Source: Promethearchaeota archaeon
Lineage (GTDB): Archaea; Asgardarchaeota; Lokiarchaeia; Sigyniarchaeales; SOKP01
Assembly: GCA_048938895.1 (NCBI GenBank)
Contig: JBHLLU010000096.1
Coordinates: 1 to 11,019 of the forward strand
DNA: 11,019 nt
Direction: 5' to 3'
Shown: in pieces, positions 896 through 7,624 of the stretch
Position numbering within the stretch: position 1 is the stretch's first letter
Layout: each line of letters begins with the position of its first letter
Position numbers and translations under genes: made by a program
Notes under the pieces: model-generated
Told to the model about the DNA's origin: nothing
Seen by the model: only the letters and a program-made list of their open reading frames with translations
Databases searched by the model: none

Positions 896-1510
896 ATGAT
901 AATAAATTTTTATCCTCCCTCACTTTATAATTTTCTATGGTATATAAGGTCCAATTCCATAGGTAATAGAATTTTGGATTGTGGTGCGGGAGGTTCTGAT
1001 CCTAAGCTTGCTTTTTTTAAAGAAAATGGATTCGAAGTATACGGAATTGATATTTCAGAAGATCAAATTAAGGGAGCTATTGAATATTCTGAAAGAAACA
1101 ATGTTAAACTAAATATAATTAAAGGAGACATGAGAAAAATACCATATAATTCAGATTTTTTTGATTACATCTATTCTTATAACTCAATATTTCATTTAAG
1201 CAAAAAAGATAGTGGAATTGCTGTAATTGAAATGCATCGTGTACTTAAAAAAAATGGATTATGTTATCTAAATTTTCTCTCTGTTGATGATAAATGGTCA
1301 AAAGAAGGAGATGAAATCAATCCTGGAGAACTTATTACCAAAGAAGGTGATAAAGAGTATTTTCACAGCTATTATGATGATGATGAACCTGATATCTATT
1401 TTAAGGAAAATTTTGAAATTATCTATAAGGAGAAAACACAGATAAAAATTGGTAGATATTTCAATACTGGTCGTAGCTGCATTCTTGAATATATTGCAAG
1501 AAAGAAATAA
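896..1510 (+). CDS. Class I SAM-dependent methyltransferase
   Basis: Motif I ILDCGAGG, plus VYGIDIS, KGDMRKIPY, FDYIYS, SIFH and EMHRVLKKNG. Confidence 0.9.
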   Translation: MIINFYPPSLYNFLWYIRSNSIGNRILDCGAGGSDPKLAFFKENGFEVYGIDISEDQIKGAIEYSERNNVKLNIIKGDMRKIPYNSDFFDYIYSYNSIFHLSKKDSGIAVIEMHRVLKKNGLCYLNFLSVDDKWSKEGDEINPGELITKEGDKEYFHSYYDDDEPDIYFKENFEIIYKEKTQIKIGRYFNTGRSCILEYIARKK

Positions 1511-4001: not shown

Positions 4002-4086
4002 AGGTTGCACCTGTCAACACTCGCAAATATACGAAAATCACTTTCCAAGAGACAAAAATCCAGGGTGCTTGACAGGGGCAGAACCT
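4002..4086 (-). ncRNA. Putative structured ncRNA, copy A (terminal stem plus Sm-site-like GAUUUUUG core)
   Basis: Minus strand reads AGGUUCUGCCCCUGUCAAGCAC-CCUGGAUUUUUGUCUCUUGG-AAAGUGAUUU-UCGUAUAUUUGCGA-GUGUUGACAGGUGCAACCU. The 5' and 3' ends form a long bulged stem. An internal hairpin has a U-G wobble that favours this strand. 29/32 nt identical to 7515-7546. Confidence 0.6.
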
Positions 4087-4106
4087 ACTTTTTGTATAGA
4101 GGAGAG

Positions 4107-4114
4107 TTTAAAAA
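4107..4114 (-). promoter_or_regulatory. TATA-like box (TTTTTAAA) for ncRNA copy A
   Basis: Ends 20 nt upstream of the stem start at 4086 and has an A-rich BRE-like stretch further upstream. This spacing fits an archaeal promoter. Confidence 0.45.
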
Positions 4115-4226
4115 GTACTTTTTATTTTCGAGTCTTCAAATTAAAATTTTAAATTAATTAAAGTAAGTAACTGGCATGAATCCCAAAAAGGAGAATAAAA
4201 CTAATTTTTTCCCCTAATTAATTCAA

Positions 4227-4280
4227 TGTGTATTCATGATTTTTTCAGAGATTAGGCTGCTCTAATAACATGAATACGTA
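4227..4280 (+). other. Intergenic nested stem-loop
   Basis: TGTGTATTCATG (4227-4238) pairs with CATGAATACGTA (4269-4280), 12 bp including two G-U wobbles. It encloses AUUUUUUC and the hairpin ATTAG/CTAAT. Confidence 0.45.
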
Positions 4281-4507
4281 AAAATATCCCCTTATTGAGT
4301 TATCATGCTCAATTACTTGAGTGGTTACACAAAAATAAGGTTTAAAATAACGTTAGGGATTGAAGGTTTTGTAATTTTATTCATTTTGGAAAAGATTCTA
4401 ACGACTAATTCATAAGGTTACAGTTATTAATTCAAATTAATCTAAAATAAAAATAATACCTAATTAAATTAAGAATGGTCTTTTAAATAGGATAAAATGA
4501 GTGAATA

Positions 4508-4879
4508 ATGAATGATTATAACAAGTATTCAATTAATCTAGAAATCCAATTCCAACCTTTAGAAATTATCGACATTGCAAAAAAAATTGATGAATCTACT
4601 AAAAATTGGCAGAACGTCTCTCTATGTATGGTTAATGATTCAGTAGTTAGATTAGCTGTTATTGAAGGAGAGTTTCATTGGCACAAACATGAAAATGAGG
4701 ATGAATTCTTCTATGTTATCGAAGGATCTCTATTAATTGATTTAGAAGAAAGAACAATTGAATTGAAACCTATTCAAGGATTTACTATCCCAAAAGGGGT
4801 AATCCATAGAACAAGGGCTCCAACTCGCACTTCAGTTTTATTAGTAGAAAAAAATACAGTAATCCCTACTGGAGATTAA
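4508..4879 (+). CDS. Cupin domain protein (mannose-6-phosphate isomerase-like)
   Basis: Cupin motif 1 GEFHWHKHENEDEFFYVIEG and motif 2 FTIPKGVIHRT. Confidence 0.9.
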   Translation: MNDYNKYSINLEIQFQPLEIIDIAKKIDESTKNWQNVSLCMVNDSVVRLAVIEGEFHWHKHENEDEFFYVIEGSLLIDLEERTIELKPIQGFTIPKGVIHRTRAPTRTSVLLVEKNTVIPTGD

Positions 4880-4952
4880 ATTTTTTAAAAAATTTTATAT
4901 GAAGAGTAGCATGAGTTTGTTTTCATTGAAATTAAGATACACCAAAAATTGG

Positions 4953-5672
4953 TCATTTCCTCTTTATAACTTTTATTAAAATTGGAATAAATAATGCAAC
5001 TACCGTGATGATGACGGCTGCTGAGATAATTAAGACAAGATTACCAGGGTTATCTTTAGATTTGATTATAGTTAAGCTTGATATTATCTCATTATTATGC
5101 TTTATTACTTCATTAACTAATATCCCTTTTTTATTATACGTGAGGATGGCTTGATCGTTTCCAATATCTATTATAATAGTATTGTCACTCACATTTGCAG
5201 ACCATAGAGTATAACTTTCAATGAACACTTTAACTATATTTATATCCACAGGATCATCTGGGATAATAAAATATCCTCCATAACCATGTAATAATAGATT
5301 ATTCATGCTGTCATCGAATTTAAAGAATTGATCAGTCTTATTATAAAGCAAACATAGCTGATTTTGGAATTCTAAATTATCAACATTCATTACTACATAG
5401 GTACTCGTGTTGACATTATACTTGCTGACGGATACATTAGCACCTAATGCTCGGATTATTTCTTCATATTGATATAATTTTACGAATTCTACTTTAATTT
5501 TATATGATTGAGGCGCGAAGTTATCTTCCCAATCATATTCTATGAATCCTTCTTCATCTATCGGGAGTGAGCAACCACCAAGTTTAAAACCAGCAAATAC
5601 TATGTTAATACAACTAGCAAAAGCTAAAAGAAATATTAAGATATTCTTGAGTATATGGAATTTTTCTTTCAT
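4953..5672 (-). CDS. Hypothetical secreted, C-terminally membrane-anchored protein
   Basis: Likely start is ATG at 5672 (MKEKFHILKNILIFLLAFA...), giving a signal-peptide-like N-terminus. C-terminal TM helix followed by a basic tail (KVIKRK). The ORF track's start at 5696 is a TTG. Confidence 0.75.
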   Translation of the reverse strand: MKEKFHILKNILIFLLAFASCINIVFAGFKLGGCSLPIDEEGFIEYDWEDNFAPQSYKIKVEFVKLYQYEEIIRALGANVSVSKYNVNTSTYVVMNVDNLEFQNQLCLLYNKTDQFFKFDDSMNNLLLHGYGGYFIIPDDPVDINIVKVFIESYTLWSANVSDNTIIIDIGNDQAILTYNKKGILVNEVIKHNNEIISSLTIIKSKDNPGNLVLIISAAVIITVVALFIPILIKVIKRK

Positions 5673-5891
5673 TAAAAGTAAATGGTTGACAATCAAATTA
5701 AAGCTTTTCTGATATTAACTTAATTTTTATCGCGATTTTCCTTTTTTTCCTTTTACTTAATTGAAATATCTTTTATTTCATGTGAGAAAACGGTATAATT
5801 GAAAGATTTATAAGTTTAAATCACCATTAAATCCTTAGAGAAAAGGTATTTAGGAAAAAAGAATTTCAAAAACTAAAAGTTAATCGTTGAT

Positions 5892-6488
5892 ATGAGATTT
5901 AATTTAAGATTATTTAGAGATTGGAAAAGAAGATTCTCCCTAAAGAAAAAAAGAATAGTTTTTAAACCTCCTTTTAACTATGATTACACATTTAAGGTAT
6001 TATTATTTGGAGAAACTGGAGCAGGTAAGACGGGATTAGCACAAAGGTATTGTTATGATATTTTTGATCCGTCAGAAAAGTTAACAATAGGCGTAGATTT
6101 TTACGTTAAAGCGATAGAAAAGAATGGAAAAAAGGTTAAGTTACAAATTTGGGATATTTCTGGTGAGGATCAATTCCGATTTCTTTTTCCGAGTTATTGT
6201 CTTGGAGCTAATGCTGCTATACTCATTTTTGATATTACTAAATCCAAGACTCTACACATTATGTCCCAATGGATTGAAATAATAAGAGAAAATGCGGGTG
6301 ATATCCCAATAATCTTAATTGGAACGAAATTAGATCTTGAAGAATTTCGTGAATTGAACAGAGATGAAATATTTGAAATAACGAAAAAATTTAAATTATC
6401 AAGTTATAATGAAATTTCAACTAAAACAGGTGAAAACGTAGTAAGTACATTCGATGTGCTTACTGATTTATTAATTAACAATCTGTAG
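5892..6488 (+). CDS. Rab-like small GTPase (Ras superfamily, eukaryotic signature protein)
   Basis: G1 GETGAGKT, G2/RabF1 TIGVDF, RabF2 KLQIW, G3 WDISGE, RabF4-like YCLGA, RabF5-like LIFDIT, G4 TKLD, G5 STK. No C-terminal prenylation cysteines. Confidence 0.92.
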   Translation: MRFNLRLFRDWKRRFSLKKKRIVFKPPFNYDYTFKVLLFGETGAGKTGLAQRYCYDIFDPSEKLTIGVDFYVKAIEKNGKKVKLQIWDISGEDQFRFLFPSYCLGANAAILIFDITKSKTLHIMSQWIEIIRENAGDIPIILIGTKLDLEEFRELNRDEIFEITKKFKLSSYNEISTKTGENVVSTFDVLTDLLINNL

Positions 6489-6570
6489 AGATTTCTATAA
6501 AAAAGGAATAATTAAGTAAAACTTATTTATACTTAATTAACATAAAGAAAATTAAATAACACTATTATAG

Positions 6571-7389
6571 ATGAAATTTGTGAAAAAATCATCTTATTGT
6601 TTCATTCTACTGTCTTATATTGTTATCTTAAATTTATTTCTATTTTCAATACCCACGATGGCGTTAAAGGAGAAACACTCGATTATAACCATCGAAGATT
6701 CTACAATTGATGCAAATAATCCTACTACTAATTATGGGGGTACAGATGATCTCGAAGTGGGGTATATTAGCAATTGGTTGGAAGCTTATATAAAATTTAC
6801 TTTATCTGGTGCGCCCAGCAGTTTTGCTGAAGTACATCTACGATTAGATTTTCTCCAAGTCTCAGCTACAACACGTATTTATATTTATGAAACATCCACT
6901 GCTTGGGATGAATACACGATTACATGGAATAATGCTCCTTCATATGGGACTCCTGTAGATTCGGTTATAGTAACTCAAAATACCGCCTATGAAATAGATA
7001 TTACAGAGAGTATTCGATCCGAATCAGGATTTTGGTCTATCTGTCTTACATCTCTTGAAACGAATTGGCTGAGATTGGCATCAAGGCAATACCCAAGCAT
7101 ATATGAACCTCCTACAATTATTTATTATGCTAAGGAAAGTGATGCTTCAATATATATGGGCATAATCATAGCCATAACTGTAATAGCAGTTGCTATAATA
7201 GGGTTCTTAGGCTTCATCTTTTATAGGAGAAATAGATTTCCAAAAGAAATTATTAAACCTATTATACCAAAAGAGACTTCTAGTCAGGTAATTCCTCAAA
7301 CAAGAACAGGAATGAAATATTGTGTTCACTGTGGTCAAGAAAATCGTGAAGATTATAGCTTTTGTGTTGCATGTGGGAAGGAAATTTAA
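6571..7389 (+). CDS. Single-pass membrane protein: signal peptide, DNRLRE/CBM96-like domain, TM helix, cytoplasmic zinc ribbon
   Basis: DSTIDANNPTTNYG, AYIKF, WDEYTITWNNAP, EIDIT and LASRQ...P resemble the DNRLRE family. A TM helix is followed by YRRNR. C-terminal CVHCG...FCVACG. Confidence 0.8.
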   Translation: MKFVKKSSYCFILLSYIVILNLFLFSIPTMALKEKHSIITIEDSTIDANNPTTNYGGTDDLEVGYISNWLEAYIKFTLSGAPSSFAEVHLRLDFLQVSATTRIYIYETSTAWDEYTITWNNAPSYGTPVDSVIVTQNTAYEIDITESIRSESGFWSICLTSLETNWLRLASRQYPSIYEPPTIIYYAKESDASIYMGIIIAITVIAVAIIGFLGFIFYRRNRFPKEIIKPIIPKETSSQVIPQTRTGMKYCVHCGQENREDYSFCVACGKEI

Positions 7390-7480
7390 TCGAAGCTTTT
7401 TTTAAAAATACTAAATATCGAAGATTAATTCTAGTATCAATTTAAAAACAAAATTCAATAATAAATTATAGTCATTAGAA

Positions 7481-7487
7481 TTAAATA
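7481..7487 (+). promoter_or_regulatory. TATA-like box (TTAAATA) for ncRNA copy B
   Basis: Ends 21 nt upstream of the stem start at 7509, nearly the same spacing as copy A. The region is AT-rich, so a chance match is possible. Confidence 0.4.
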
Positions 7488-7508
7488 GGAAAATAATAAC
7501 TTCTAGTT

Positions 7509-7624
7509 ATGATTCCTGTCTATCACCCTGGATTTTTGTCTTTTGGTAGTGTTAGCAATAACACTCTTGAAACTAACCCTAAACTATTTTAGCTTCTTTT
7601 TTGAAGCCGATTGACGGGAATCAT
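7509..7624 (+). ncRNA. Putative structured ncRNA, copy B
   Basis: ATGATTCCTGTC (7509-7520) pairs with GACGGGAATCAT (7613-7624), with one U-G wobble. Core CACCCTGGATTTTTGTCT is identical to copy A. Internal hairpins are AGTGTTA-GCAA-TAACACT (GNRA loop, 7548-7565) and GCTTC-T6-GAAGC (7592-7607). It lies between convergent genes. Confidence 0.62.

Follow-up and report, generated by a model that had tools for sequence, protein, structure and literature searches.

The question addressed in this study was whether two short, similar segments dispersed on one contig of a Promethearchaeota archaeon are genes for a structured RNA and, if so, what such an RNA might do. The contig (JBHLLU010000096.1 of assembly GCA_048938895.1; 11,019 nt) was analyzed over its whole length and is called the window below. 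One segment, copy A, lies at positions 4086–4002 on the minus strand (85 nt), the other, copy B, at positions 7509–7624 on the plus strand (116 nt). To our knowledge, very few non-coding RNAs (ncRNAs) of Asgard archaea are known beyond ribosomal RNA (rRNA), transfer RNA (tRNA), ribonuclease P (RNase P) RNA, signal recognition particle (SRP) RNA, and guide small RNAs (sRNAs). An earlier note on this DNA had proposed that both segments are dispersed copies of an unrecognized structured ncRNA family. This proposal was borne out by a covariance model, which found matches in 127 of 135 genomes of the host's archaeal family, and by covariation in all modelled pairs. The two stretches are almost certainly genes for a real structured RNA family. 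The family is previously undescribed, about 120 nt in length, multi-copy, and specific to one archaeal family. A full-text literature search, which did not reach supplementary listings, returned no description of the RNA.

Two related RNA genes in one window

The positions and strands of both copies were as first reported, and so were the identity of 29 of 32 positions between them, the exact 18-mer, and the AGTG that follows. Specifically, the 32-mers of copies A and B differ at three positions, share the 18-mer CACCCTGGATTTTTGTCT (4067–4050, minus strand, in copy A; 7524–7541, plus strand, in copy B), and are directly followed by AGTG in both copies. When the window was shuffled 200 times with preserved dinucleotide composition and searched with up to three mismatches, the mean number of matches was 0.01, and not one of the 200 shuffles contained two matches.

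The segment CCUGUC has its pairing partner in UUGACAGG in copy A and in UUGACGGG in copy B, and the outer stems of the two copies keep their pairing with different sequences. Both features, which the earlier note had described, were recovered in the sequence and in the minimum free energy (MFE) folds. These folds reach −27.8 kcal/mol (z −3.1) for copy A and −35.9 kcal/mol (z −6.3) for copy B, with the ends closed by the predicted helices in each case. The opposite strands of both copies fold more weakly than the proposed strands.

Architecture and covariation

About 90 copies were fetched, and 72 of them were aligned to give the covariance model R1. A broader covariance model, R2, comprises 97 members from six genera. 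E-values obtained with these models are rough, as the calibration was short.

Both ends of the RNA form the helix P1, which is modelled with 12 bp, extends to 15–17 bp in some members, and carries a semi-conserved CUCC/GGAG in its middle. The joining strand J1/2 consists of a few variable bases and the invariant 20-mer CUGGAUUUUUGUCUUUUGGU, which is immediately followed by the hairpin P2. The 20-mer is invariant across genera, and all of its surroundings are variable. The joining strand J2/3 has a mean length of 31 nt and is composed of 72.5% pyrimidines and only 8.8% G (97 members); CCUCC occurs in 47 and CUCC in 59 of these 97 strands. The hairpin P3 is optional and is absent from the 100-nt forms of one genus. 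Its loops have 6 nt of variable sequence, and 4–6 nt separate it from the P1 return strand.

In the alignment of 97 non-redundant members, 93.1% of the pair cells are standard base pairs, compared to 71.9 ± 0.6% after shuffling of columns (none of 500 shuffles reached the observed value) and to 33–45% if the partner is slid by one to three columns. Compensatory changes on both sides were found in all 24 modelled pairs (12 in P1, seven in P2, five in P3); one pair at the base of P2, for instance, is A-U in 56 members and U-A in 19. A structure-blind scan of mutual information with average product correction returned modelled pairs as all ten of its top ten column pairs, and neither a pseudoknot nor an extra long-range pair appeared in it. 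Pairing of CUCCU in J2/3 with GGAG of the P1 3' strand was considered and rejected, as by eye no covariation is seen where inner P1 changes.

The transcribed strand is fixed by the excess of G-U and U-G pairs over A-C and C-A oppositions across the family (147 versus 48 cells), in agreement with the strands predicted for both copies. The GNRA loop on which that prediction had partly relied is present in copy B (GCAA, 7555–7558); it is not a feature of the family, since P2 loops vary.

The idea of a constant scaffold combined with a variable module holds in its first half, the 20-mer being kept in 12 of 13 genera. The second half, which had read the one hairpin of copy A and the two hairpins of copy B as the variable module, does not hold, because copy A is a deletion derivative. 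In another species, the syntenic counterpart of copy A (L055) is a full-length copy of 106 nt (65.3 bits) that includes P2, the pyrimidine strand, and P3, and its flank is 79% identical to window positions 4157–4377. Compared to this counterpart, copy A has lost about 30 nt internally. On this sequence comparison, copy A arose from a full-length paralogue by internal deletion rather than being a designed short form, and with its pyrimidine strand gone it is probably decaying. What truly varies in the RNA is J2/3, the pyrimidine-rich strand that separates the two hairpins, and not the number of hairpins.

The DNA that separates copy A from the cupin gene is also conserved. Window positions 4157–4377, which are intergenic, match positions 291–510 of L055 with 79% identity over 223 nt, and the tblastx matches are spread over several frames of either strand, so that the conservation looks nucleotide-level. 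The stretch may be a promoter, an untranslated region (UTR), or another non-coding element.

Distribution of the family

The source genome, 98.7% complete, is assembled into 174 contigs that total 4.65 Mb; one of them, C41, is in its entirety the window. The further copies that the earlier note expected were found here and in related genomes. Five copies were detected by R1 in the source genome: one on contig C61 (119.8 bits), one on C137 (97.6 bits), the two in the window (91.9 and 41.2 bits), and a degenerate one at the end of C163 (25.7 bits).

Within the genus, 32 of the 36 other genomes at species level contain a 25-mer of the element (up to three mismatches allowed), and a reversed-pattern control had no match; in 24 genomes of neighboring families, the 25-mer was absent. 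R1 gave between one and 18 matches per genome in 127 of the 135 genomes of the host's family (source genome included), which represent 12 of 13 genera. All 36 high-quality genomes of this family (≥90% complete, ≤5% contaminated) were positive; the eight genomes of the family with no R1 match are 62–94% complete. The 20-mer, searched with up to two mismatches in 400 genomes of the phylum, was found in 126 of 134 genomes inside the family, nearly always exactly. Outside the family it was found in 10 of 265 genomes, about the level of the reversed-pattern control, and nine of these had two-mismatch matches only. The single exact match outside belongs to a sister-family assembly (G047) and probably reflects mis-binning.

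The same assembly accounts for the only R1 match in the sister family (one of 14 genomes). It lies on a 1.8-kb contig (C1000) of a 1150-contig assembly and for this reason is probably mis-binned as well. No R1 match was obtained in five genomes of two further families of the order. With R2, convincing but diverged copies were recognized in four of the 14 sister-family genomes, including three in one closed 6-Mb genome that have AUUUUGUCUUUUUGG, P2, UUGAUUUCGCCC, P3, and P1 in common. In a sample of the phylum, R2 matched 25 of 25 genomes of the host's family and one of 125 others. This one match (L176:101–186, minus strand, in genome G253 of another family; 86 nt, 30 bits) shows UGGAUUUUUGCCUUUUG and a hairpin, a stretch of pyrimidines, and a closing helix of 12 bp; by its sequence it is a marginal match and possibly a remote homologue outside the order. 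Beyond it, neither R1 nor R2 detected the RNA elsewhere in the phylum. The RNA is thus essentially universal in one family, diverged copies of it occur in some genomes of the sister family, and it may be older than this distribution shows.

Exact matches in public genomes comprised 118 stretches. Among the 80 listed, 53 were assigned to Promethearchaeota or Promethearchaeia, 16 to 'uncultured archaeon', eight to other Asgard candidate phyla, and three to bacterial metagenome-assembled genomes (MAGs). The latter three (L197, L226, and L250) carry the exact 20-mer on MAG contigs titled Clostridia, Saccharibacteria, and Patescibacteria and are probably mis-binned archaeal contigs. An Asgard host is supported by these assignments as well as by the Ras-family GTPase gene of the window and the many introns among the tRNA genes of the source genome (17 of 34 predictions). 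Several copies are situated at the very ends of contigs, for example C163:57485–57556 in the source genome and copies in several relatives. This suggests that the repeat breaks assemblies, and the copy numbers counted in draft genomes are accordingly minimum values.

Types and loci

One syntenic locus within the genus defines type C, the J2/3 of which, UCUGAUUUCGCCCUCCUCCCCCUAUU, is identical in many species, with compensated drift in the helices. The genes at this locus are, in order, one for an unknown protein (162 aa) and one, in divergent orientation, for a small membrane protein with four helices. The RNA comes next, and a radical-SAM gene lies about 200 nt downstream of it; this arrangement recurs in four genera. 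The radical-SAM neighbor resembles the tetraether lipid synthase Tes with 386 bits, below the cut-off of 450 bits. A second type, D, is single-copy and has a different conserved J2/3, and further paralogues, copy B among them, have a J2/3 of their own.

A type-C copy from the same genus (L067:1485–1632, contig C12) has a 30-nt insertion midway in the pyrimidine strand, which is otherwise invariant, GCCCUCC[AAGGUGAUGGCACUCCCAUGCCUGGGGAAU]CCCCCUAUU, and still scores 89.3 bits. The extra segment may represent a small intron or have been inserted recently.

Copies often occur in pairs on one contig, typically 3–7 kb apart, with distances of 3.3, 2.8, 4.7, 5.2, and 6.4 kb in five relatives and of 3.4 kb in the window, and the relative orientation within such pairs varies.

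Comparison with known RNA families

A search of Rfam 15 (4227 models) gave no match to either copy at E ≤ 10. For six other members (E ≤ 5–10), the only result was a chance overlap with NEAT1_2, which scored 24.2 bits where the gathering score is 60. ARAGORN predicted no tRNA or transfer-messenger RNA (tmRNA) gene in the window, and the P3 loops, with their 6 variable nucleotides and a distance of 4–6 nt from P1, do not provide a stacked T arm. Together with the missing leader context described below, these results bear out the earlier note, which had not recognized the segments as tRNA, SRP RNA, RNase P RNA, box C/D RNA, or a known riboswitch: they are none of these.

Archaeal guide RNAs resemble the RNA in being small and multi-copy and in combining a constant protein-binding part (putative here) with variable single strands. 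The box C/D class, with its RUGAUGA/CUGA K-turn, was rejected: the consensus reads A-U-G-R-C-U-C at the 5' end and G-A-G-Y-C-N at the 3' end, without a terminal C/D box, and CUGA is found only inside J2/3 of one type. The H/ACA class was rejected as well, since the positions after the helix are C (72 of 95 members), C (63 of 95), and C or T, with A there in only 6–10 of 95, instead of the ACA that would be expected. No significant complementarity of the RNA to rRNA of relatives was found either.

Y RNAs of Ro60 ribonucleoproteins (RNPs) are similar in their length of about 100 nt, the long stem at their ends, the pyrimidine-rich interior, and the U-rich 3' end. By contrast, the 98.7% complete source genome lacks a Ro60 gene (no match to PF05731, TROVE, with control genomes positive), and there was no Rfam match to Y_RNA or YrlA. 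In summary, no described family includes this RNA, and the defining features of each specific family considered are absent from it.

Sub-threshold Rfam matches to C/D-box RNAs occur elsewhere in the window, at 5282–5349 (minus strand; SNORD108, 26.3 bits, cut-off 46) and 1343–1394 (plus strand; sR2, 22 bits, cut-off 42). Both lie inside open reading frames (ORFs) and are most likely due to chance. ARAGORN predicted 34 tRNAs in the source genome, 17 of them with an intron; none encodes CCA, and the trailers are directly T-rich. Doubtful predictions include two tRNAs with introns of 771 and 2807 nt and one with a 'Stop' anticodon.

Ends of the RNA

Just upstream of the helix lies an A-rich tract, with A at −5 in 80 of 95 members, followed by the consensus A, U, G at the helix edge, presumably an archaeal initiator with the start at G. 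Position 1 of the model is U in 63 of 95 and position 2 is G in 70 of 95 members. Downstream, the helix is followed by N, C, C (the two C at the frequencies given above), Y, and T-T-T. Exceptions to the NCC are one genus with CUAUUUUU and copy B of the window with UCUAUAUCC. The RNA is possibly the trimmed product of a longer precursor that is cut back to the helix.

Proposed mode of action

The best explanation as a whole, to which we give an even chance, is a trans-acting RNP RNA that combines an Sm-site-like protein platform with an anti-Shine-Dalgarno-like effector strand. The parts of this explanation differ in strength. Action in trans within an RNP is somewhat probable, an Sm-type protein as the partner is a tentative suggestion, and pairing of J2/3 with ribosome-binding sites is possible though doubtful. 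In this mechanism, the RNA would be made as a separate small transcript, or be trimmed back to the helix, and would act in trans as the RNA part of an RNP. The invariant AUUUUUG strand and the U-rich 3' end would form the docking site of a conserved protein, with a Sm-like archaeal protein (SmAP) as the leading candidate. The exposed pyrimidine strand would be the working part, which either pairs with purine-rich ribosome-binding sites of the GGAGG type or holds a second protein, and paralogues with differing pyrimidine strands would be sibling RNAs of different specificity.

As the only element unchanged across genera, the 20-mer appears to be read base by base. Its reader would most simply be a protein, because the source genome holds no antisense partner: a search of both strands with up to three mismatches returned only the copies themselves and, at three mismatches, about as many matches as the reversed control. 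The motif AUUUUUG is found inside the 20-mer, between P1 and P2, in nearly all members and thus has the form by which an Sm site is recognized, A-U(4–6)-G flanked by helices. It is near the eukaryotic Sm-site consensus, which is given as AAUUUUUGG in a passage of PMC5587771. A weaker second repeat, UCUUUUGG, follows AUUUUUG, and a U-run is present at the 3' end. Three to four LSM-domain genes (counted as four) are encoded in the source genome.

The case for the effector strand draws on the pyrimidine-rich composition of J2/3, on its identity in many species at the type-C locus, and on the 16S rRNA, the 3' end of which reads ...GGAUCACCUCCA in a member of the genus; J2/3 of the main type repeats its anti-Shine-Dalgarno core CCUCC. 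The purine-rich words GGAG or GAGG occur at −20 to −4 (enriched at −17 to −10) before 269 of 2271 long ORFs, compared to 60 of 2271 in a control window.

Several observations weigh against this explanation. The TATA-like box that the earlier note had placed 20–21 nt upstream of each copy found no support in the wider comparison, where none of the positions from −60 to −7 in 95 members exceeds 0.13 bits in this A+T-rich DNA and hence no positioned TATA box is seen. Similarity among paralogues usually begins only 10–15 nt upstream of the helix, which implies that a promoter was not co-duplicated. The pair counts come from an alignment that had been fitted to the model, and related genomes do not count as independent samples. 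LSM genes also number three in a relative with no detectable copy of the RNA, so that the Sm link gains no phyletic support; the LSM genes are compatible with the Sm idea but do not support it. Searches of the source genome with 11-mers of four copies and 10-mers of the type-C strand gave no convincing antisense target, and none of extended length for type C; the 25 other places in this genome that share words of 10–12 nt are mostly within Gly-rich coding sequence. Since the source assembly contains neither 16S nor 23S rRNA, comparison with rRNA relied on 23S and partial 16S sequences from relatives; the 20-mer and three J2/3 types gave duplex energies similar to those of shuffles (z −1.9 to +1.0). 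Finally, some paralogues, including copy B, do not contain CCUCC, and J2/3 of the sister family folds into a hairpin of its own. The lack of an extended target fits pairing through a short seed and equally a protein-binding tract.

Alternative explanations

An alternative of some weight, if an unlikely one, is a protein-sequestering or purely structural RNP RNA. The 20-mer and the pyrimidine tract would then both be protein sites, target pairing would play no part, and the RNA would titrate or scaffold its partners in the manner of 6S, CsrB-type, or Y RNAs. The lack of base-pairing targets in the searches described above would agree with this, as would the copy number of one to 18, which fits dosage-type titration, and the fact that paralogues and genera keep the composition of J2/3 with different sequences. 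At the syntenic locus, however, J2/3 is conserved base for base in many species, which argues for sequence-specific recognition rather than composition alone. Furthermore, there is no known candidate partner, and the source genome is devoid of Ro60/TROVE.

The regular flanks of P1 raise the thought of a tRNA-like minihelix, in which the 12-bp helix and the N-CC are seen by tRNA end-processing and CCA-adding enzymes that set or tag the ends, with the remainder as cargo. Twelve base pairs are the combined length of acceptor stem and T stem, and the modelled P1 has this length. The conserved flanking positions on both sides (U, G; C, C, and the T-run) point in the same direction. So does the finding that tRNA genes of the source genome run from the discriminator base into the T-rich trailer with no CC, which makes the CC specific to this RNA. 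We nevertheless rate this explanation as very improbable. The distance of P3 from P1 and its variable 6-nt loops leave no T arm to stack, P1 reaches 15–17 bp in some members, NCC is replaced in one genus and in copy B as given above, and ARAGORN finds nothing.

A selfish repeat that spreads as DNA or via RNA, like a miniature inverted-repeat transposable element (MITE) or a short interspersed nuclear element (SINE), would have P1 as its inverted terminal repeats. Up to 18 short, dispersed copies per genome, inverted ends, similarity of paralogues mostly confined to the element and 10–15 nt on either side, copies at contig ends, and copy pairs a few kilobases apart are all in the manner of such repeats. 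The origin from a MITE or from the end of an insertion sequence (IS), which had been put forward as the outcome that would overturn an RNA family, was looked for and left no trace. No target-site duplication was detected over 96 loci, the longest word shared between flanks having 4.51 nt compared to 4.55 ± 0.10 nt for re-paired flanks. In the flanks of 97–133 loci, no RNA-related or mobile genes were present, neither transposase nor integrase, reverse transcriptase, or Cas. Each of the 12 P1 pairs differs on both sides between copies, also between copies of a single genome. A MITE is rejected because duplications and nearby transposases are missing and the arms covary rather than being conserved; the covariation and the G-U excess on one strand indicate selection on an RNA, not on a transposase site. 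With one ancestral locus in synteny across four genera and at least one copy in each of the 36 high-quality genomes, a selfish repeat is highly improbable.

An equally slight chance is given to a cis-acting leader or riboswitch, whose ligand pocket would consist of the 20-mer, P2, and the junction and whose switch would be P1 with the U-run. The three-way junction with invariant joining strands has a riboswitch-like look, and at the ancestral locus the RNA is positioned about 200 nt upstream of the Tes-like radical-SAM gene on the same strand (14 non-redundant loci, three genera). Over the family, a co-oriented ORF begins within 300 nt downstream in only 15 of 97 copies, whereas 33 of 97 face an ORF on the opposite strand, and paralogues adjoin unrelated genes. 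Both window copies are convergent with their downstream genes, in keeping with the earlier remark that they are not in an obvious 5' UTR. A leader or riboswitch was rejected because of these orientations.

A short peptide gene has virtually no chance: many copies do begin with ATG (A-T-G at the 5' edge in most members), with a frame of 14 codons to a stop inside P2 that is open in two types and in which the GTA/GTT difference would be synonymous, but this A/T change is a compensated P2 pair (GGTAGTG/GGTTGTG; A-U and U-A as counted above) and the 20-mer is invariant at every codon position including third positions, which together rule the gene out, and many members and other genera lack the ATG, shift the frame, or lose the stop, copy B being in a different frame.

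Relation to other small RNAs and significance

By analogy, the RNA would work most like small RNAs of the Sm or Hfq type, with a constant U-rich module, an exposed seed, and sibling copies. Small nuclear RNAs (snRNAs) of the Sm class and RNAs bound by SmAPs, such as SmAP1 and SmAP2 of Sulfolobus, share with it a single-stranded AUUUUUG between helices, near the consensus quoted above, a U-rich 3' flank, a small size, and a gene of its own, and LSM proteins are encoded in the source genome. Unlike in Sm-class snRNAs, the invariant block of 20 nt far exceeds an Sm site, and the 5' and 3' ends are paired together; neither by sequence nor by Rfam is there similarity to any snRNA. The Sulfolobus SmAP2 motif GGAUGGAUAUUAGGAAAUG is unrelated to the 20-mer.

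In bacterial Hfq-dependent sibling sRNAs, C/U-rich seeds pair with ribosome-binding sites. The family described here resembles them in having paralogues with a constant U-rich strand, a hairpin, and a U-tail, and in exposing an anti-Shine-Dalgarno-like pyrimidine strand. It differs in its archaeal host, the lack of an Hfq-type terminator hairpin, the long helix that joins the ends, and the lack of targets found in the source genome.

A bolder form of the Sm reading, which we consider very unlikely, would make this an Sm-class small RNP RNA of Asgard archaea: an Sm ring would sit on the AUUUUUG strand between two helices, as in eukaryotic snRNAs, and a single-stranded segment would recognize other RNAs by pairing. 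In that case it would stand as a prokaryotic counterpart of the small nuclear RNP (snRNP) design or might even be related to it. If it were true, a snRNP-like design would exist in the lineage from which eukaryotes arose.

Presence in 36 of 36 high-quality genomes, an unchanging block of 20 nt, and helices kept by compensation are hallmarks of an important RNA, and the models R1 and R2 permit its immediate annotation in hundreds of genomes. If the 20-mer is an Sm-protein site, the RNA would offer a tractable entry to the roles of Sm proteins before spliceosomes. Should the pyrimidine strand bind ribosome-binding sites by pairing, the RNA would act as a translational regulator throughout the family, in a group with unexplored post-transcriptional control.

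Features of the window and neighboring genes

The coordinates of both copies and of their parts are summarized in Table 1.

Table 1. Positions of the two RNA genes and of their structural elements in the window
Feature	Position	Strand	Evidence
Copy B, full-length member	7509–7624	+	R1 91.9 bits at 7510–7623; R2 86.0 bits; fold z −6.3
Copy B, P1 5' strand AUGAUUCCUGUC, partner 7613–7624	7509–7520	+	MFE fold; 12 of 12 P1 pairs covary family-wide
Copy B, invariant 20-mer CUGGAUUUUUGUCUUUUGGU with Sm-site-like AUUUUUG	7528–7547	+	In 126 of 134 other family genomes, mostly exact
Copy B, hairpin P2, AGUGUUA-GCAA-UAACACU	7548–7565	+	Double changes in 7 of 7 P2 pairs
Copy B, J2/3 single strand CUUGAAACUAACCCUAAACUAUUUUA, type-specific segment	7566–7591	+	Unpaired in fold
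Copy B, hairpin P3, GCUUC-UUUUUU-GAAGC	7592–7607	+	5 of 5 P3 pairs covary
Copy B, P1 3' strand GACGGGAAUCAU	7613–7624	+	MFE fold; P1 covariation
Copy A, short member without P2 and pyrimidine-rich strand	4002–4086	−	R1 41.2 bits at 4005–4081
Copy A, P1 5' strand AGGUUCUGCCCCUGUCAA, partner 4002–4017	4069–4086	−	MFE fold
Copy A, core motif with one change and altered 3' end, CUGGAUUUUUGUCUCUUGGA	4044–4063	−	Sequence comparison
Copy A, P1 3' strand UUGACAGGUGCAACCU	4002–4017	−	MFE fold

The genes that flank the RNA at the 97–133 loci inspected encode the Tes-like radical-SAM enzyme, the four-helix membrane protein, and proteins of the Ldh_2, HhH, LRR, and helicase kinds. Between the two copies of the window (4087–7508) lie genes for a cupin, an unknown 247-aa ORF, a small GTPase of the Ras/Roc type, and a CBM96/zinc-ribbon protein.

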